Assembly: GCA_018712515.1 (NCBI GenBank)
Contig: DVGW01000050.1
Location: 1,119-65,118, forward strand
Reading direction: 5' to 3'
DNA from: Candidatus Aphodovivens avicola
GTDB lineage: Bacteria; Actinomycetota; Coriobacteriia; Coriobacteriales; Eggerthellaceae
DNA length: 64,000 bases
The notes under the pieces were generated by a model, which was given only the letters and a program-made list of their open reading frames with translations, did no database searches and was not told where the DNA came from. Positions 8,487-42,660 of this stretch are shown in pieces. Both the position numbers and the translations under genes were made by a program. Every line of letters starts with the position of its first letter. The first letter of the stretch is position 1.

Positions 8487-9215
8487 CTACCTTCCTTTCT
8501 CCGCTGCGCGCGGCCTCGCCCCGCGCCCGCCCGCCGGCGCCTTCCTGCCGGCGGCGATGGACGCCATCTCGGCCCTGACCGACGGCTTCCCCCCGTTGCG
8601 GGGGATCGGTTCACCAGCCCCTCCTGATGGCCGACTTCTCCCGGATGTAGGCTCTGACCGAGTCCCTTTCCCCGGGCGGTCTGCTAAAGGGGCGCCGCCC
8701 TCCTTCGCCGGAGGGGCGAGCAGGTCCTCGAGAGAGGGGGCGTCCGTGGCCCGATGAGGGCTCGGCACCTCCGGCTCGGGCGCGCTCTCCGAAGGTTCCC
8801 CGGGGCCGTTCCGGCTTCCTGGCCCCCTCGGGGGCGCGTCGCGGGCGACGCGGGCGAACCCGTGCCGCTCGGCTATGCGGTTCACCTTGCTCGCGTCCTC
8901 GGCCCGCACCAGCAGGTCGACCGATTCGGAATCGTCCTTCTGCTTGACGACGGTGTACACGATGCCGTAGCGGCGCGCCTCCCGGGCGAAGGTGCCCAGG
9001 TCGGCGCGCCGTATCGGGAACACGCGCAGCTCCTTGCCCGACCGGAGGAGCGCGGCGAGCCGCGCCTTGCCGCGCGTCTTCTGGCTGCTCGCCATCGCGG
9101 CCGCCAGCATCGCGGCGGCGTCCCTAGCGCCCGCTCCCGTGATGCGCAGCGCCACCTCGGCGCCTTGGAGGGTCATGCGCACGATCTGGTCAGCGGCTTC
9201 GCTCGATGCGTCCAT
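8487..9215 (-). CDS. PcfB family (DUF3801) protein
   Basis: 242 aa. N-terminal region QIVRMTLQGAEVALRITG...LRVFPIRRADLGTFAREARRYGIVYTVV is typical of PcfB. Low-complexity tail. Confidence 0.8.
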   Translation of the reverse strand: MDASSEAADQIVRMTLQGAEVALRITGAGARDAAAMLAAAMASSQKTRGKARLAALLRSGKELRVFPIRRADLGTFAREARRYGIVYTVVKQKDDSESVDLLVRAEDASKVNRIAERHGFARVARDAPPRGPGSRNGPGEPSESAPEPEVPSPHRATDAPSLEDLLAPPAKEGGAPLADRPGKGTRSEPTSGRSRPSGGAGEPIPRNGGKPSVRAEMASIAAGRKAPAGGRGARPRAAEKGR

Positions 9216-10539
9216 GCTCTGTCTCCTTCCTTTCCGTTTCGTCCCGCCCGCCGCGCTCGACCTCCGCGATGCGCCGCGCGAGCCCCGGGCCCCTTTCGCG
9301 GATGCCGTCGCAGAGCCCCAGGTCCCGCCTGATGCCCTTCAGCTCCGCGGCGATTTCCGCGATCCGCGGGTTCGGCGCCGCCGGCTCTCCCCGCGCCCTG
9401 CGGAGGCGCCTCGCCTCGTTTCGCAGCGCGCGCCGTTCGCCGTCCAGGGCCGCCATGCGCTCTTTGAGCGCCTCTTCGTGGGCGAGTAGCTGCCCCTCCG
9501 TCTCGATCCCGTTTTGCGTGAGCAGCGCCAGCTCTCGCGAGATCGCGTCGAGGTTGCGGAGGTCCTCGCGCAGCAGGAAGTGCATGCGGGGGCCGCCCGC
9601 GCCCTGGCGGCGCGGAGCGTTGAGCATCGCCATGTAGCGCCGGTACAGGCTCACGAGGGAGCGGGCCGGGACGGGCGTGGGCTTCGCACGGGTCGGTCTG
9701 GGTCTGCCCACTGGCAGGCGGGGGCGGGCGCTCGAGAGGATGCGCGCGGATATGCCTTCGTAGGAATACCCGTCCCCGAAGTTGCGGCGCAGGCGTACGA
9801 AGCGCTCCTTGCCGGGCGGGCGCACGGAGATGTCCTTGCCCGTCTTCACCTCGTAGCCCATCGCCCGCAGGTTCGCGTAGAACTGGCGCATGGTGGACGC
9901 GCGCGCCACGGCCTCGTCCGCGTCGGCCTTCACGAGGGAGCGCCACGTCGGCCTGCCGTCGCGCTCGGCGCGCCACTCCGCGTAGTGCCTCGACCTCCCC
10001 GGCTCCGGGCGGTCGACCACCGACAGGCCGCGCCCCCGGCACAGCCTGTCGGACGCGCCGCGCATGGCCCGGTAGCAGGCGGTATCGCGGTGGAGGCGCC
10101 TGCCGTCGGCGAAGGAGACGGAGTTGATGACGAAGTGGTTGTGCAGATGCGCCTTGTCCAGGTGCGTGGCCACCACCACCTCGAACCGCGCGCCCCACAG
10201 TTCCCGCGCGAGCGCCACCCCGATTTCGTGCGCGGTCTCGGGGTCTGCCTCGCCGGGCGCGAACGCCTGGTAGCCGTGGAACGCGACGATGCCGCCCTCC
10301 TTGCCGTACTGCCGCTTGGTGGCGTTCATCTCGGCGAGCGCCGTCTCGGGCAGGCAGTTGACGCCGGAGACGTAGCGCTGCTCCTCGGTCTTGCCGGGGT
10401 CCGCGGCGTAGAGGATCGCGGCGCCAACGCCCTGGCGTTCCCACTCGTCGGGCGCGCCCTCGGTCTTGGCCGGGTTCTCCGCGTAGCCCAGCACGCGGGC
10501 GAGCCGCCCCTCCACCTTCCATATCGAAGTGACGGCCAA
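9190..10539 (-). CDS. Relaxase/mobilization nuclease
   Basis: 449 aa. His cluster HLDKAHLHNHFVINSV. TTG start after GGAAGGAGGGG. Sits directly downstream of mobC. Confidence 0.85.
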   Translation of the reverse strand: MAVTSIWKVEGRLARVLGYAENPAKTEGAPDEWERQGVGAAILYAADPGKTEEQRYVSGVNCLPETALAEMNATKRQYGKEGGIVAFHGYQAFAPGEADPETAHEIGVALARELWGARFEVVVATHLDKAHLHNHFVINSVSFADGRRLHRDTACYRAMRGASDRLCRGRGLSVVDRPEPGRSRHYAEWRAERDGRPTWRSLVKADADEAVARASTMRQFYANLRAMGYEVKTGKDISVRPPGKERFVRLRRNFGDGYSYEGISARILSSARPRLPVGRPRPTRAKPTPVPARSLVSLYRRYMAMLNAPRRQGAGGPRMHFLLREDLRNLDAISRELALLTQNGIETEGQLLAHEEALKERMAALDGERRALRNEARRLRRARGEPAAPNPRIAEIAAELKGIRRDLGLCDGIRERGPGLARRIAEVERGGRDETERKETEHGRIERSR

Positions 10540-35666: not shown

Positions 35667-36629
35667 TTATTTCACGATATTGCGGGGCCTTCCTTCGAGG
35701 AAGGCCTCTATGTTTCGGGCGACCTCGTCGAGGAGGCGCGCGCGGGCCTCGCGGGTCCCCCAGGCGATGTGCGGGGTGATCGCGACGTTGAGGTCGTGTA
35801 CCTCGAGCAGCGGGTTGTCGGGGCGCATCGGCTCCACCGCCACCACGTCGGCGCCGAACCCCGCCAGCTTCCCGGAGCGCAGGGCGTCCGCCACCGCGCG
35901 CTCGTCGACGAGCGTTCCGCGTGCGGTGTTGATCAGCAGCGCGCCGTCTTTCATCTGGGAGAGCGCTGCGGCGTCGATCATCCGCTCGGTCTGCGGCGTC
36001 GCCGGCACGTGCAGCGACACGACGTCGGAGCGGCGCAGGAGCTCGTCCAGCTCGACGTGGCTCACGCCGGGCGCCTCGAGATGGGGCTTGGGGCTGCGGC
36101 TGGCGAACAGCACCTCCATGTCGAACGCCCGCGCGATGCGCGCGACCGCCTGGCCGATGCTGCCCATGCCGACGATCCCGAGCGTCTTTCCCGCCACCTC
36201 GATGAGCGGCATGGCGTAGAAACAGAAGTCATGCGTGCGCGTCCAGGCCCCATCGAGCACCTGGCGGGTGTGCTTTCCGACGTTCAGGCACAACTCCAGC
36301 ATCAGCGCGATCGTCATCTGGGCGACATCGGGGGTCGAGTACGCCGGCACGTTGCAGACCGTGATGCCGCGTCGGCGCGCCTCGTCGAGATCGACGACGT
36401 TGTAGCCGGTGGACGCCAAGGCGATCAGCTTGAGGTCAGGCGACCAGTCGAGCGCCTCCTTATCCCAGATCACCTTGGTCGCGATGACGATCTCGACGCC
36501 CTTCATCCGCTCGCGCAGCGTCTCGCGCGGCGTGCGCTCGTACACGGTCACGTCGCCGTAGCGCTCGAACGCATCCCAGCTCAGGTCGCCGGGGTTGCAC
36601 ACGTACCCCTCCAGCACCGCGATGTTCAT
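35667..36629 (-). CDS. D-isomer-specific 2-hydroxyacid dehydrogenase
   Basis: 320 aa. NAD fold GIVGMGSIGQAVARIA and the catalytic R/E/H region. Confidence 0.85.
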   Translation of the reverse strand: MNIAVLEGYVCNPGDLSWDAFERYGDVTVYERTPRETLRERMKGVEIVIATKVIWDKEALDWSPDLKLIALASTGYNVVDLDEARRRGITVCNVPAYSTPDVAQMTIALMLELCLNVGKHTRQVLDGAWTRTHDFCFYAMPLIEVAGKTLGIVGMGSIGQAVARIARAFDMEVLFASRSPKPHLEAPGVSHVELDELLRRSDVVSLHVPATPQTERMIDAAALSQMKDGALLINTARGTLVDERAVADALRSGKLAGFGADVVAVEPMRPDNPLLEVHDLNVAITPHIAWGTREARARLLDEVARNIEAFLEGRPRNIVK

Positions 36630-36690
36630 TCCGCCTTGCCTCCGATCCTGATTTCCGACAAAGCCCTTGCTGGTCCCGTCTGGCGTAACG

Positions 36691-36792
36691 CGCCGTCATG
36701 CGGTGGCATACGCCGTCGAGCAACGGCATGCGCCGTCATGCGGCGGCATGCCTCGTCTAGCGGCGGCATGCCGCGCGTCGATCGAAACCATG
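36691..36792. repeat. Tandem 20-nt direct repeats (4 good units plus 1 degenerate)
   Basis: CGCCGTCATGCGGTGGCATA / CGCCGTCGAGCAACGGCATG / CGCCGTCATGCGGCGGCATG / CCTCGTCTAGCGGCGGCATG / degenerate unit. They begin 62 nt upstream of the dehydrogenase start. Confidence 0.85.
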
Positions 36793-37160
36793 CCATGTTG
36801 CGCGACGGAAACCGGCGCGCAGACGAAAGCCGGTCCGCGTTGCACGACGAAAGCCGGGCCGCAAGCCGCAATCGCGCTATATCGAAAGATGATGCCACAA
36901 TGGCCCCTTCGCTCGACCCATTGTTTCGATTTAGCGCGATTGTTTTAGGCGCTTGAAGAGAAGGGAAAGGCCGGCGTGGTTGTGACCTGGGGCTATAGCA
37001 GAAGGTTGACGGGCGATGTTCCGGTTGGGAAACGCGGTTCGCGCTAAATCGAGCAAACGCGCTTTCAGATGGTTGGGATTTGGACGTGTTTGGCGATTTA
37101 GCGCGAATCCGATCGTGCGAATCCGAGCATGGCTCGGGAGTGGTCTGGGGGGAGCTCCAC

Positions 37161-37289
37161 GCGGCGGTGGAATACCGTCAATGAGCAATGGGGTCGGACA
37201 CGCTTTTTGTCCTATAACCCGAATTTCATGCGGCGGTGGAGTGCCGTCGATGAGCAATAGGAGTAGGCGCGCTTTTTGTCCTATAACCC
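37161..37289. repeat. Two tandem ~60-nt units, period 69 nt
   Basis: GCGGCGGTGGA.T.CCGTC.ATGAGCAAT.G...GCTTTTTGTCCTATAACCC occurs at 37161-37220 and 37230-37289. Confidence 0.85.
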
Positions 37290-37400
37290 GGGTCTGTCCG
37301 ATAGGGGGAACGGCGGTCGAATGGAGGGATCTGCATTGGCAGGGCCCGGGATGCACGTTTTGGCCTATAGCTCAACGATCAGGTTTGATCGCGGGGATGC

Positions 37401-37529
37401 AAAAGAAGCGGCCCGGCGGAGAGGGGAGCTCCGCCGGGCCTAAGGAGGGGATGATGCGATGCCTTGCGCATCGCTCTGCTTTAAGGGATAAGCAGAAGCA
37501 AGGGGAGGAGGGGAACCTCTCGCTTGCTG
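37401..37529 (-). ncRNA. Candidate C-rich-motif small RNA, copy 1
   Basis: Minus strand. -10 TATACT (37536-37541). Hairpins GCGATGC/GCATCGC and CTGCTT/AAGCAG. Motifs UUCCCCUCCUCCCC and AUCCCCUCCUUA. Terminator GGCCCGGCGGAG-CUCCCCU-CUCCGCCGGGCC followed by GCUUCUUUU. Confidence 0.45.
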
Positions 37530-37879
37530 GCTCACAGTATAGCGAACGCCGTTGGAGACCGTATGTGCGCCCCGTGGCTGTTTTGTGAATTTGCACCCTC
37601 ATAAGTAACAGTTAGGTAAAAAGCGGGCAAAAAATCGCCGGGAGAAGGGGATGAGCATGGGGGCGGGCGAGGATGCGAACGCGGGCGCGGATGCGGATAC
37701 GGGGGAAGGTGCGGATGCGAACGCGGATGCGGGTGCGGATGCAGCGTTACGTTGAAGGCGCGGGGGTGGAGACGGGCATGGAGGTAAAAACGGGTACGGC
37801 GCAGATGCTGGTCTGGGGGTGGAGACTGGCACGGAGCGGGCGCTGACGAGAACGCAGAGGCGAGGGGCGGGATGCGGGC

Positions 37880-38002
37880 AAAAAAGGGCCCGGCGGAGAG
37901 GGGAGCTCCGGCCGGGCAACAAGGAGGGGATGACGCGATGCGCAGTGCATCGCTTCTGCTGAAAAGCAGAGCGCCTGAAAGGAGGGGAGCCTCTCAACCG
38001 CT
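37880..38002 (-). ncRNA. Candidate C-rich-motif small RNA, copy 2 (paralogue of copy 1)
   Basis: Minus strand. -35 TGGGCA (38032-38037), 17-nt spacer, -10 TATAAT (38009-38014). Hairpin GAGAGG-CUCCCCU-CCUUUC. Two conserved internal hairpins with different loops. Linker AUCCCCUCCUUG. Terminator with a CUCCCCU loop followed by six U. Confidence 0.5.
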
Positions 38003-38374
38003 GCATTGATTATAGGACGGGGTCTTACCGATGCCCACCCCGCGCCGCGGTCGGCGCGAGATGCTCGGCGAAATGCACGGCGCGTGGCCTGCGGCGCCGT
38101 TCGCCCTCCGATACGTTCCGCCGGCCCGCGGATGCGCCGGACGCTGCCCCGAGGCGTCGTGCGGTGCTCGTGACGAATCAGCGCGTTGCCATGCCGCGCA
38201 TGCGATGAACCTGCGGAAACCGGGGCGCGCGGGTGGCAGCGGGCATGCCGTTCACGTATGATAGCCAGATGGCGGCGCGAATGCCGCCAGCGAAGCGAGC
38301 TCTCGCAGGTCCCGCCCGCGGGCAGCGTCGGCGCTTCGCCCCATACGCATCTCTCGCTGACAAGGAGGGCTTCC

Positions 38375-39280
38375 ATGCCCGATATCCAAATGCGCTTCGA
38401 CAAGGACATGCTCGTCCTGTCCGCGCCCCTGCGATCCGTTCTGGTCCGCCAGGGCGTCGACGTTGACCGCGATCTGGAGTACATGCTGCTGGTGGAGCCG
38501 GAGGCGCTGCGCGACACCGTGCGCATGGAGAAGATCGCCGGCGCCCAGTGCCTCGTCGCCGCGACCGAGGGGATCGCGCCCGCGCGCCTGGCCCACAAGG
38601 GGATGGAGGAGCGCGGAACCGAGCTGGCGCTTGCCGCCCTCGGCATGCTCCGCCCGCTGAAGCCCCAGCACCTGCTCGCGGAGATCGGCCCGTGCGGCCT
38701 GCCGCTCGACGGTTCGAGCGCCGATTCCCTCAACGAGAACCGCGCCCAGTACGCGCGCGCCGCCCATGCGTTCGACGGGCAGATGCTCGACGCGCTGTTC
38801 CTCACCGGGTTCAAGCGTCCCGACGACCTGAAGTGCGCCCTTATGGGCCTGCGCCAGGTGACCGACATCCCCGTGTTCGCGTCCGTCGACGTGGACGGCG
38901 CGGGAATGCTGCCCGACGGCCGCACCTCGATCGAGGAGGCCGTCGCGCTGATGGCCGAGTTCGGCGCGTCGGTTGTCGGCTTCGAGTGCGCCGCGCCCGA
39001 AAGCGACGTTGTCGCCGTCGCCCGCCGCGCCGCTGGGGCGTGCGATCTGCCCCTGGTCGTCCAGCTGGAGGTCCTCCGCCGCGATCCCAAGCAGGGCGCG
39101 GCGTCCGAGGAGAACCCCTACTACTGCGCCGACACCATGGTCTCGGCGGCGCTCGCCCTGCGGGCGGCCGGCGTCCAGTTCCTGCGCGCCACGGGGGACG
39201 CGTCGCCCGCCTACACCGGCGCCCTCGCCGCCGCGGTGATGGGGCTCGACGTGGCGCTTTCGACCGGGCAGGAGCGCTAG
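38375..39280 (+). CDS. Homocysteine S-methyltransferase (Hcy-binding) domain protein, possibly degenerate
   Basis: Trimmed to ATG 38375 (RBS AAGGAGGG). 301 aa resembling the MetH N-terminal / MmuM fold. The GGCCG zinc motif appears to be replaced by RATGDAS. Confidence 0.6.
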   Translation: MPDIQMRFDKDMLVLSAPLRSVLVRQGVDVDRDLEYMLLVEPEALRDTVRMEKIAGAQCLVAATEGIAPARLAHKGMEERGTELALAALGMLRPLKPQHLLAEIGPCGLPLDGSSADSLNENRAQYARAAHAFDGQMLDALFLTGFKRPDDLKCALMGLRQVTDIPVFASVDVDGAGMLPDGRTSIEEAVALMAEFGASVVGFECAAPESDVVAVARRAAGACDLPLVVQLEVLRRDPKQGAASEENPYYCADTMVSAALALRAAGVQFLRATGDASPAYTGALAAAVMGLDVALSTGQER

Positions 39281-40484: not shown

Positions 40485-41177
40485 ATGATTTACTACGTTG
40501 AAGACGACACCAACATCCGCGACCTGACGATCTACGCGCTTCGCCAGGCGGGATTCGAGGCAGAGGGCTTCGCCGCCGCGTCCGAGTTCTTCGAGGCGTG
40601 CAGGCGCCAGCTGCCCGAGCTCATCCTCCTCGACATCATGCTCCCCGAGATCGACGGCCTCGAGATCCTCCACATGCTGCGCGAGGACTCCTCCACCAAA
40701 AACCTCCCGGTGATGATGCTCACGGCCAAAGGCACCGAGTTCGACACGGCGAGCGGCCTGGACGCCGGCGCCGACGACTACCTGGCGAAGCCGTTCGGCA
40801 TGATGGAGCTCGTCTCGCGCGTCAACGCGCTCCTGCGCCGCGCCGCTGCCCCGGCGGTCATGGCGGACGACGAGCTGACCTGCGGGCCGGTCGTGCTGCG
40901 CACGGCGGCGCATGCGGTCGAGGCGGGCGGCAACCCGGTGACGCTCACGCTCAAGGAGTTCGACCTCCTGCGCACGCTCATGGTGAACAACGGCCGCGTG
41001 CTCACGCGCAGCCAGCTGCTCGAAGAGGTGTGGGGCATCACCTATGTCGGCGAGACGCGCACCGTCGACGTCCACATCCAGACGCTGAGGCAGAAGCTCG
41101 CCGCCGCCTGCCCGGGCGCCGACGCCTGCATCGGCACGGTCCGCGGCGTGGGCTACTGCTTGAAACGCCCCTCGTAG
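40485..41177 (+). CDS. OmpR/PhoB-type response regulator
   Basis: Receiver domain LILLDIMLPEIDG. Winged helix RTVDVHIQTLRQKL. Confidence 0.9.
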   Translation: MIYYVEDDTNIRDLTIYALRQAGFEAEGFAAASEFFEACRRQLPELILLDIMLPEIDGLEILHMLREDSSTKNLPVMMLTAKGTEFDTASGLDAGADDYLAKPFGMMELVSRVNALLRRAAAPAVMADDELTCGPVVLRTAAHAVEAGGNPVTLTLKEFDLLRTLMVNNGRVLTRSQLLEEVWGITYVGETRTVDVHIQTLRQKLAAACPGADACIGTVRGVGYCLKRPS

Positions 41178-41190
41178 CGAGGCGCCGCGC

Positions 41191-42660
41191 ATGATCGCGA
41201 AGTTCTCCGGCTCCCCGCTCAAGGTCAAAAGCCTGGCGGGGCGCATCTTCATCAGCGTCCTCGCCTTCGTCCTCGTCACGATCATCGCGGTGGCGCTCGT
41301 CCTCACGTCCGTGTTCTACCTGTTCTCCGCCGGCGAGGGGGAGGACAACCTGATGCGTCAGGCGCGCGAGGCGGCGGCGATGCTCCAGGACGCCCCCGAC
41401 GACCAGGCCGAAGTTGACGAGCTGCGCTGCCAATTCGACGGGGAGATCCGCTACACCCTCATCAACGCGGACGGAGACGTGCTGTTCGACAGCGACGCCG
41501 ACGAGGGCGTGATGGAAAACCATGCGAACCGCCCCGAGTTCGTCGAGGCCCGCGAGCGGGGCGAGGCGCTCAGCGTGCGCTTCTCCTCGACGCTTCAGAC
41601 CGACACCGTGTACGCGGCGGTGCTGCTCGACGACGGCGACGTGATCCGCCTGTCCGAATCGCGCGCCTCCTTGGTCGCGTTCATGAGCAGCATGGTGGTG
41701 CCGGCGATCATCATCACACTGGTCGCGGCGGTCCTAGCCTTCGCGGTGTCGCGCCTGCTCACCAAGCACATCATGAAGCCCATCGACGCGCTCGACTTCG
41801 CAAACCCCCTCGAGAACGAGATCTACGAGGAGATGGACCCGCTCCTGTTCCGCATCGACGAGCAGCAGCGCCAGCTCAAGCAGCAGAACATCGAGCTCGC
41901 GCAGGCCGAGAGCATGCGGCGCGATTTCTCGAGCAACGTCAGCCACGAGATGAAGACGCCGTTGCAGGTGATCTCGGGCTACGCGGAGCTGATGAAAAAC
42001 GACATGGTGGATCCCGAGGACCGCCGCAAGTTCGCCGGCCTCATCTACGACGAGGCCCAGGCCATGCGCCTGCTGATCAACGACGTGCTGACGCTGTCTC
42101 GCCTCGACGAGACGACGCTCCAGCAAACCGACGCCAAGCCCATCGACCTGGCCGCGCTGGCGCGCCGCGTGCGGATGCGCCTGGAGAGCTTCGCCGCTGA
42201 GAAGGTGGTGCGGGTGAAGGTGACGGGCGATCCCGCCTACATCATGGGCAACGAGACCATGGCGGAGGAGATGCTCTACAACCTGCTGGAGAACAGCATC
42301 CGCTACAACCGCACCGGTGGCGAGGTCCATATGGCGATCTCGCGCGAGAAGCCCAAGCCGGGCAACATCTTCGCCGAGGGAGGGCGTCTGGAGGCGCCCC
42401 ACGGCGTCATCGTCGTGCGCGTGAGCGACACGGGCCGCGGCATCCCCGAGGAGTACCGCGAGAAGATCTTCGAGCGCTTCTTCCGCGTCGACAAGAGCCG
42501 CTCCAAGGACACCGGCGGAACCGGCCTGGGCCTGGCGATCGTCAAGCACACGGTGCTGTACCATCACGGCACGATCAAGGTGGAAAGCGAAGAGGGCAAG
42601 GGGACGACGTTCACGCTGAGGTTCGCCGCCGTGGAGCCTTTGGAGGAGGACGGCCGATAG
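41191..42660 (+). CDS. Sensor histidine kinase
   Basis: Two TM helices. H-box SHEMKTPL. N, G1 and G2 boxes (GGTGLGLAIV). Confidence 0.9.
   Translation: MIAKFSGSPLKVKSLAGRIFISVLAFVLVTIIAVALVLTSVFYLFSAGEGEDNLMRQAREAAAMLQDAPDDQAEVDELRCQFDGEIRYTLINADGDVLFDSDADEGVMENHANRPEFVEARERGEALSVRFSSTLQTDTVYAAVLLDDGDVIRLSESRASLVAFMSSMVVPAIIITLVAAVLAFAVSRLLTKHIMKPIDALDFANPLENEIYEEMDPLLFRIDEQQRQLKQQNIELAQAESMRRDFSSNVSHEMKTPLQVISGYAELMKNDMVDPEDRRKFAGLIYDEAQAMRLLINDVLTLSRLDETTLQQTDAKPIDLAALARRVRMRLESFAAEKVVRVKVTGDPAYIMGNETMAEEMLYNLLENSIRYNRTGGEVHMAISREKPKPGNIFAEGGRLEAPHGVIVVRVSDTGRGIPEEYREKIFERFFRVDKSRSKDTGGTGLGLAIVKHTVLYHHGTIKVESEEGKGTTFTLRFAAVEPLEEDGR

Follow-up and report, generated by a model that had tools for sequence, protein, structure and literature searches.

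Two similar units of roughly 125 nt lie in tandem at 37401-38002 of a 64,000-nt stretch of contig DVGW01000050.1 from Candidatus Aphodovivens avicola, a member of the Eggerthellaceae (the whole stretch is called the window here). They raise the question of whether they are genes for small RNAs (sRNAs), what such RNAs would pair with, and what would switch them on. An initial annotation, made from the letters of the sequence, had proposed two paralogous minus-strand sRNA units at these positions, with C-rich motifs complementary to ribosome-binding sites (RBSs), and all of the features that it listed are present in the sequence. On sequence evidence, the two units are anciently duplicated genes of an uncatalogued, structured sRNA family of ~125 nt. 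The reading that we prefer, with a probability of about 0.7, is that they encode trans-acting sRNAs that pair with Shine-Dalgarno (SD) regions of mRNAs.

Structure, conservation and age of the two units

Copy 1, the distal paralogue (37401-37528, minus strand, ~128 nt), was delimited by its fold, the terminator scan, its match to a covariance model of the family (R1) and its orthologues. Copy 2, the paralogue proximal to an S-methyltransferase gene (37880-38002, minus strand, ~123 nt), was delimited by its fold, its R1 match and its orthologues. The distance between the units is 477-479 nt. On the minus strand both fold into four hairpins plus an unpaired linker of 15-17 nt that contains CAUCCCCUCCUU. 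In copy 1, hairpin 1 (37528-37497; loop UUCCCCU, 3' arm CCUCCCC) is followed by hairpin 2 (37496-37475; stem CUGCUU/AAGCAG, loop AUCCCUUA), hairpin 3 (37474-37456), the single-stranded linker AUCAUCCCCUCCUUA (37455-37441), the terminator (37440-37410; loop CUCCCCU) and a U tract (37409-37401). Copy 2 repeats this order on the same strand, with hairpin 1 at 38001-37971, hairpin 2 at 37970-37955 (UCUGCU-UUUC-AGCAGA, loop UUUC), hairpin 3 at 37953-37935, the single-stranded linker GUCAUCCCCUCCUUGUU at 37934-37918, the terminator at 37917-37888 and the U tract at 37887-37880. The common layout of hairpins, linker and terminator with U tract that had been described earlier was recovered in both folds, as was the use of one and the same loop, CUCCCCU, in hairpin 1 and the terminator of copy 2.

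Hairpin 3 reads GCGAUGC-N5-GCAUCGC in both copies, the hairpin 1 loop across the two is YUCCCCU, and the terminator has the form GCCCGGC(C)GGAG-CUCCCCU-CUCCGCCGGGC followed by the U tract. The terminator scan listed that of copy 1; the copy 2 stem, which has one bulge, was missed by this simple scan, yet it folds. The minimum free energy (MFE) of the minus strand was -66.4 kcal/mol for copy 1 (z = -7.6) and -56.2 kcal/mol for copy 2 (z = -4.2), and for neither copy was any of 200 shuffles as stable. The likeness of the units is not a matter of chance, because a 23-nt terminator core, expected 0.00 times in the window, is found there exactly twice. The copies are only ~63-79% identical, depending on the alignment, and are therefore old paralogues.

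The minus-strand orientation proposed in the initial annotation is borne out by the signals at both ends of the units. All 64 distinct members of the family have a -10 box of the form TAYAMT, placed 5-8 nt before the start of the RNA. U tracts follow the terminator on the minus strand only; the terminator-like hairpin of the plus strand has A's before it and no U's after it. The conserved upstream elements also run in the minus-strand sense. In the mechanism that we propose, each gene would be transcribed from its own promoter on the minus strand and would end at its own intrinsic terminator. With a predicted promoter and intrinsic terminator of their own, a covarying structure and a conserved unpaired linker, the units have the general features of trans-encoded sRNAs.

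We aligned 64 distinct sequences (alignment A2), took as consensus structure a vote over their individual MFE folds, and built R1 from these. RNAalifold on a MAFFT alignment recovered only 8 pairs, its stems being misaligned by loop-length variation, and was replaced by the fold vote, the covariance model and pair counting. Within the 64 kb R1 matched the two units only, copy 1 with 123.1 bits (E = 2.6e-29) and copy 2 with 109.6 bits (E = 6.2e-26). Pairs were counted over 71 distinct sequences of the R1 alignment, with partners slid by 1-3 columns and 500 shuffles as controls. In this alignment, which was fitted to the structure and so is biased toward it, 93.1% of cells held a standard pair (37-48% after sliding) and 343 cells were changed on both sides (35-73 after sliding), and the covariation score was 0.405 (0.05-0.10 after sliding). 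Covariation among homologues had been suggested earlier as a check on the structure, and 33 of 38 pairs were found changed on both sides, against 11-18 of 38 with slid partners. None of the 500 shuffles attained any of the observed measures. All four helices contributed; two adjacent pairs of hairpin 3, for example, alternate between AU (35 sequences) and GC (29) and between UA (40) and CG (25), respectively. The compensatory stem changes are evident in the raw sequences despite the fitting of the alignment.

The units are conserved well beyond this strain. One genome per prokaryotic species was scanned with the pattern TCCCCTCCT-N35-65-CCCCTCCTT-N8-28-TCCCCTC, which matched at least 119 stretches. 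Among the matches listed, about 50 records from at least 12 genera belong to the Eggerthellaceae; the genera include Gordonibacter, Paraeggerthella, Rubneribacter, Raoultibacter, Ellagibacter, Slackia, Adlercreutzia, Enterorhabdus, Parvibacter, Aphodovivens and Aveggerthella. The Eggerthellaceae records listed all share the promoter, the four hairpins and the terminator. With R1, 72 copies were found in 51 Eggerthellaceae sources, 7 of them outside the exact search pattern. The 73 pattern matches from other families were rejected as relatives, since they failed R1 (best 24 bits) and are unrelated tandem-repeat arrays. As far as sampled, the sRNA family is restricted to the Eggerthellaceae.

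The gene next to copy 2 encodes an S-methyltransferase (PF02574; 38375-39280, plus strand, identified by Pfam and tblastn synteny) and is divergent from it. Homologues of this flanking gene were found in Candidatus Aphodovivens (72% identity), Gordonibacter, Rubneribacter, Raoultibacter and Eggerthella. By its flanking proteins the window is assigned to the Eggerthellaceae (Coriobacteriia, Actinomycetota). On syntenic contigs of species whose S-methyltransferases are 84%, 80% and 72% identical to that of the window, both sRNA copies were present, with order and orientation kept in all. Copy 1 is better conserved than the neighbouring protein, since its orthologues are 88-96% identical across species in which the S-methyltransferase is 72-84% identical. 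Conservation of copy 2 across the same species is lower (73-93%) and is accompanied by compensatory changes in its stems (loci L011, L012, L015 and L054), such as GGAG/CUCC to GAAG/CUUC in the terminator and UCUGCU/AGCAGA to CCUGC/GCAGG in hairpin 2.

Across genera the usual arrangement is two to three copies within a few kb. In most genera the locus adjoins the PF02574 gene, upstream of it and divergent (tblastn synteny over ~30 loci); the distance from sRNA to S-methyltransferase start varies from ~190 to 3,400 nt, and some loci have no such gene within the fetched sequence. The similarity of copy 1 to distal copies in other genera (73-78%) exceeds its similarity to copy 2 (63%), and copy 2 is most like the S-methyltransferase-adjacent copies of other genera (70-71%). 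Because each copy is closest to its positional counterpart elsewhere, the duplication is older than the split of the genera and both paralogues have been retained.

Promoters and candidate regulators

The -10 box TATACT of copy 1 and the TGGGCA and TATAAT boxes of copy 2 with their 17-nt spacer, all noted before, were found again in the sequence and by promoter scan. The initial annotation had overlooked that the two promoters differ in type, with 11-bp repeats at copy 1 and a sigma-70-like promoter at copy 2. The copy 1 box (37536-37541, minus strand) predicts a transcription start at 37528/37529. Copy 1 and most relatives have no -35 box. An alignment anchored on the -10 box revealed, at about -61 to -23 (37551-37589, minus strand), direct repeats with an exact 11-bp period, whose units are TTCACA (37589-37584), GCCACG (37578-37573), CACATA (37567-37562) and TCCAAC (37556-37551). 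The family promoter consensus is TTCACA-N5-nnCACG-N5-nnCATA-N5-TTCAAn-N9-10-TATAMT, and its information content peaks every 11 bp. A position weight matrix of the repeats had a single match in the window, at the copy 1 promoter (48.5 bits). In the S-methyltransferase-adjacent copies of other genera the CAC phasing spans six units. Further upstream of copy 1 stands the element TTTACC-N5-GTTACT (37604-37620, minus strand), made of two TTNAC-type hexamers 11 bp apart and holding the palindrome TAACTGTTA; it is kept upstream of distal, copy-1-type promoters in several genera and may be an extension of a response-regulator site. A Rex-type inverted repeat (TTGTGAA-W4-TTCACAA) was rejected at this promoter, where the right half-site is present and the left arm is absent.

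The sigma-70-like promoter of copy 2 (38009-38037, minus strand; 10/12 matches in the promoter scan) is also found in the copy 2 orthologues of the window's clade. Upstream of it, TTCGCCGA is aligned to the repeat that reads TTCACCGA in other genera. Because the position of the first repeat reads TTCGCC here and TTCACC in other genera, the alignment suggests that the response-regulator repeats have decayed at copy 2 in the window's clade, and that the paralogues may now be differently regulated.

The copy 1 repeats form a candidate site for an OmpR/PhoB-family response regulator, similar to a PHO box. Comparable direct repeats are used by ResD, MtrA and other OmpR-family regulators, and ResD or other members of the family are equally possible as the regulator of copy 1, to judge by the repeats. 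The Bacillus subtilis PHO box, as quoted in PMC11870197, consists of TT(A/T/C)ACA-like hexamers with an 11-bp periodicity, and the copy 1 promoter resembles it in having four such hexamers at that period in place of a -35 box. The copy 1 repeats also agree with the repeat unit of Streptomyces PhoP, which is 11 nt long with a TTCAC core (PMC2275107); both are resemblances of sequence only. An OmpR-family response regulator (40485-41177) and a histidine kinase are encoded together at 40485-42660 (plus strand), 2.5 kb from the sRNAs. The best NCBIfam match of the regulator was PhoB, with 210.7 bits against a cut-off of 296.2, and the kinase matched PnpS/PhoR with 234.6 and 210.9 bits against cut-offs of 400 and 334.2. 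Synteny of this two-component system with the sRNAs is confined to the window's own clade, and the system is a candidate regulator of the copy 1 promoter.

In the wiring that these signals suggest, copy 1 would be activated by an OmpR/PhoB-type regulator bound to four (possibly six) TTCACA-like repeats at 11-bp spacing, with phosphate limitation or a ResD-like redox signal as the leading candidates for the input. The paralogues would probably be wired differently, copy 1 being response-regulator-activated and copy 2 served in this clade by its sigma-70-like promoter.

Exposed C-rich motifs and rival explanations

What such RNAs would pair with is suggested by their unpaired C-rich motifs. The initial annotation had counted three exposed motifs per RNA; in the folds there are three to four, in the hairpin 1 loop, the hairpin 2 loop (copy 1), the linker and the terminator loop. 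Among family members YUCCCCU is the usual loop of both hairpin 1, where variants are rare, and the terminator, where there are a few. The fourth motif (CCCUU or CCCCUU) occupies the hairpin 2 loop of many members, including copy 1, where it is CCCUU, and not copy 2. The linker reads CCCCUCCUU in 72 of 72 copies, including all 7 found by R1 alone; two of the C-rich motifs were required exactly by the genome scan, so this invariance is partly one of ascertainment and only these 7 copies are free of the bias. The heptamer CCUCCUU, which is the anti-SD core of the 16S rRNA 3' end, lies within two of the C-rich motifs. The linker motif extends this core by CC on the 5' side, and its perfect partner is AAGGAGGGG. 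We propose that the C-rich motifs, chiefly the invariant linker, would base-pair with the G-rich SD regions (AAGGAGGGG-like) of a subset of mRNAs, and that this pairing would block 30S binding, alter mRNA decay, or both. Base-pairing of C-rich motifs with SD regions is a documented mechanism for RoxS/RsaE (PMC4409812), 6C (PMC6486639) and cuckoo/CcsR (PMC4615179, PMC8034643).

The RNAs were compared with known families. A scan of the whole window with Rfam 15 at gathering scores gave no match, and the same scan of 17 related loci returned tRNAs and one glycine riboswitch only. A sensitive scan of 36600-38400 (E <= 10) gave 13 matches, and 6C (RF01066) and RsaE (RF01820) were absent from them. 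ar14 (RF02344) matched copy 1 with 27.3 bits (E = 0.012; gathering score 58.8) and had no match at copy 2; sX13 (RF02232) matched with 20.0 and 19.1 bits (E = 0.5-0.8; gathering score 50), and atoC with 22.4 bits (gathering score 50). Membership in 6C, RsaE, ar14 or sX13 was therefore ruled out, no model having reached its gathering score. The likeness to 6C and RsaE/RoxS that had been pointed out before stands as a functional analogy of design, not as family membership. ar14 and sX13 are sRNAs with C-rich or anti-SD loops, and a C-rich terminator loop is present in the atoC consensus too. A literature search on sRNAs of Eggerthella or its relatives found no description.

By their design, RoxS/RsaE and cuckoo/CcsR are the closest overall analogues. 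RoxS/RsaE, from Bacillus and Staphylococcus, is an sRNA of ~100 nt that has a promoter and a terminator of its own; its three to four C-rich regions, in loops and linker, pair with G-rich SD sequences and block translation, and its transcription is activated by the OmpR-family regulator ResD/SrrA bound upstream of the promoter (PMC4409812). Likewise, the loops and linker of each Eggerthellaceae RNA offer three to four unpaired C-rich stretches that could pair with SD sequences, a likeness of function only, and the TTCACA-type repeats of copy 1 would be compatible with an OmpR-family regulator as well. The Eggerthellaceae RNAs differ from RoxS/RsaE in host (Actinomycetota rather than Bacillota), in the longer anti-SD mimic CCCCUCCUU, in having four hairpins and in that tandem paralogues are the rule.

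The cuckoo/CcsR RNAs of Alphaproteobacteria are stress-induced and consist of two to four adjacent hairpins with freely covarying stems, in which the anti-SD-like loop motif CCUCCUCCC alone is conserved; homologous copies are often in tandem (CcsR1-4; PMC4615179, PMC8034643). The present family has in common with cuckoo/CcsR/ar14 its modular hairpins, its tandem paralogues and an anti-SD motif set among covarying stems. Unlike in cuckoo/ar14, CCUCCUCCC is not in every hairpin loop: it occurs only in hairpin 1 of copy 1, partly within the stem, and hairpins 2 and 3 of copy 2 lack it. The family consensus here is CCCCUCCUU, in the linker as well as in loops. Furthermore, the hosts are Eggerthellaceae, the neighbour is the PF02574 S-methyltransferase gene rather than a DUF1127 gene, and each copy appears to have its own promoter and terminator instead of being processed from a 3' UTR. 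Because the phylum is unrelated, the likeness to cuckoo/CcsR is most likely convergent.

The Rfam consensus of sX13 has three stem-loops with C-rich (CCCC) loops, and sX13 loops pair with G-rich motifs near mRNA 5' ends. sX13 belongs to the Xanthomonadaceae, an unrelated taxon, and has another loop motif and another stem organisation. 6C, an RNA of Actinomycetota, has C-rich hairpin loops that pair with the G-rich RBSs of many mRNAs with no known chaperone (PMC6486639). Host phylum and C-rich hairpin loops are common to 6C and the present RNAs; in the latter the loop sequence, YUCCCCU, contains four C's, and it is the linker that holds the longest C-rich motif.

Several results weigh against SD pairing by trans-acting sRNAs, or against parts of that proposal, in addition to the ascertainment of the motifs and the bias of the R1 alignment. 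A search for targets in the window found one AAGGAGGGG outside the sRNA genes, which is about the chance level. It lies in the RBS of a relaxase gene (GGAAGGAGGGGCUGAA-UUG). Sites of the GGAGG(GG) type had been said to be used throughout the window, which holds only in part; of 9 gene starts examined, 2 have the full GGAGG, and most others have weak or partial SD-like purine runs. Target prediction with RNAduplex within the window was not discriminating, the whole-molecule energies being uniformly large in this GC-rich DNA. The S-methyltransferase gene has no conserved RBS of the form GGAGGGG or another G-rich SD; its RBS is GAAAGGA-like in most genera and does not co-vary with the sRNA linker, and this gene was rejected as an obvious conserved direct target. 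On the side of regulation, neither the rest of the window nor 339 kb of Eggerthellaceae DNA contained a further match to the promoter repeat motif, so that no link to a regulon (for example pst) emerged, and the neighbouring two-component system stays below the curated PhoB and PhoR/PnpS cut-offs. Counts of G-U against A-C pairs (99 vs 70) were too weakly asymmetric to indicate the strand, and the strand call therefore rests on the promoters and U tracts. The transcripts, their ends and their abundance are predictions from these signals.

The same motifs admit other roles. With three to four anti-SD sites per molecule, two of them with the exact CCUCCUU, and two to three paralogous genes that would be controlled by a stress-sensing response regulator, the RNAs could be multivalent mimics of the 16S rRNA 3' tail ('Shine-Dalgarno sponges') that compete with ribosomes for all strongly SD-led mRNAs and reprogram translation globally. 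We regard this as unlikely; if it were true, an actinobacterial lineage would join the Alphaproteobacteria, Bacillota and Xanthomonadaceae in the anti-SD sRNA design, apparently independently, with deep homology to RoxS/RsaE as the alternative to an independent origin. It is also possible that the RNAs titrate a C-rich-binding protein (for example one with a KH domain) or a G-rich RNA such as another sRNA, in place of pairing with mRNAs. CsrB sequesters CsrA by the same logic. The C-rich motif is repeated at exposed positions in every member, the gene is present in multiple copies and no specific mRNA target was found in the window or at the S-methyltransferase RBS, all of which would fit such a role, as would the binding of cuckoo/CcsR RNAs by the small protein CcaF1 (PMC8034643). 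However, no conserved gene for a binding protein adjoins the locus, whose sole conserved neighbour is the S-methyltransferase gene. Exact mimicry of the anti-SD core by the motif in itself predicts SD pairing, and the characterised analogues of such design all base-pair (PMC4615179, PMC4409812, PMC6486639). Titration is thus a doubtful account of the family.

Two further explanations dispense with a minus-strand regulatory RNA. Each unit contains a very strong GC-rich hairpin and lies in a repeat-rich non-coding gap that is unusually long at ~1.7 kb (36630-38374), as might be expected if the units acted passively at the level of DNA, as bidirectional terminators, insulators or a structured repeat with promoter-like boxes. 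We consider this very improbable in view of the covariation in four separate helices, the invariant linker and the promoter at a fixed distance; moreover, the element is no dispersed repeat, there being only two copies in 64 kb, in syntenic positions, and copy 1 is better conserved than neighbouring proteins. The plus strand was weighed as well, either as a leader or riboswitch-like element of the S-methyltransferase gene or as short coding genes that start from AAGGAGGGGATG. Copy 2 lies 373 nt upstream of that gene, co-oriented with it on this strand, and the neighbourhood is kept across genera. The plus strand also folds well (z = -5.0 and -3.2), both copies have a strong SD and an ATG on it, and the G-U/A-C counts are indecisive. 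Nevertheless the open reading frames (ORFs), whose translation had been raised as an alternative at the outset, are not conserved: they encode 10 aa and 45 aa in the two copies of the window and 7 to 48 aa across members, and 20 of 64 lack the ATG. A promoter-like site of the S-methyltransferase gene itself lies at 38233-38262, downstream of copy 2. Up to three copies occur per locus, at a variable distance from the gene, which is absent from some fetched loci, and no riboswitch family matched in the window, at the locus or in the 17 related loci. With the -10 boxes, upstream repeats and U tracts all on the minus strand, a plus-strand element has hardly any likelihood left.

The preferred reading, that of trans-acting sRNAs that pair with SD regions, would place the family in a functional kind that is already known. 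New are its breadth across the Eggerthellaceae, the covariation, the ancient paralogy, the S-methyltransferase address and the response-regulator-type promoter. The Eggerthellaceae, among them Eggerthella, Gordonibacter, Adlercreutzia and Slackia, form an understudied gut clade of medical relevance, with a prominent part in the metabolism of drugs, polyphenols and bile acids. Rfam is without a model for this RNA, and R1 together with a clear putative seed, a conserved genomic position and a candidate regulatory input offers an entry to post-transcriptional control in the family. The locus is also a clean case of ancient sRNA paralogues with diverged promoters, and it supplies an actinobacterial instance of the recurrent evolution of C-rich or anti-SD sRNAs.

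Neighbouring sequence

The spacer between the sRNA genes is variable and lies outside the RNAs (37642-37872; repeat families D2 and D8). Hexamer repeats of the GCGGAT type lie in it at 37659-37740. Some strains have a spacer ~194 nt shorter, the spacing of the units being 285 nt rather than 479 nt in L004 and L005, and in L011, L012 and L015 the spacer sequence is unrelated. The GCGGAT repeats give rise to a low-complexity ORF of 34 aa (MSMGAGEDANAGADAD...) at 37651-37755 on the plus strand, which is annotated in metagenome contigs. This ORF is probably spurious, because the stretch is missing in some strains and absent in related species. At 37623-37655 (minus strand), CATCCCCTTCTCCCGGCGATTTTTTGCCCGC is similar to copy 2 in the linker and 3' end, apart from a collapsed terminator hairpin (repeat family D7), and a weak terminator-like site lies at 37639-37626; CATCCCCTTCTCCCGGCGATTTTTTGCCCGC may be a decayed third sRNA copy or a second terminator. 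Between the promoters of copy 2 and the S-methyltransferase gene stands an inverted repeat, GCGCCG-N4-CGGCGC (38040-38075, plus strand), which is kept in the window's clade and may be a transcription-factor site.

Other repeats abound in the 770 nt that separate copy 1 from a 2-hydroxyacid dehydrogenase gene (37158-37290, plus strand, also 36690-36776 and ~37340-37375; families D1 and D3). Two 64-nt direct repeats, 83% identical and 69 nt apart, each end in GGACA-N7-TGTCC-TATAAC. The gap also holds a partial third copy and 10/20-nt periodic GCGCCGTCATGCGGYGGCAT repeats. The Rfam scan of 36600-38400 gave no match to these repeats. Elsewhere in the window, the relaxase gene with the AAGGAGGGG-containing RBS is of the MobA/VirD2 type (9190-10539, minus strand; PF03432, 127.9 bits) and points to a mobile element.

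The sRNA is closely followed by a tRNA gene of the same strand in several genera, and in Ellagibacter (L037) then by a glycine riboswitch (L023, 556-628; L037, 1352-1424 and 1060-1170; L067, 4420-4492); in the window itself there is no tRNA near the locus. The tandem-repeat arrays that matched the scan pattern outside the Eggerthellaceae, which are not related to the sRNA, consist of units of 24-36 nt, each with TCCCCTCCTT. They were found in Prevotellaceae, Bacteroidales, Planctomycetaceae, Thiomargarita and others (including loci L026, L033, L038, L044, L103, L108, L127 and L133). Several such arrays occur per genome, and they often finish in a CCCCTCCTT...AAGGAGGGG hairpin followed by (T)AGGGGTGGT.

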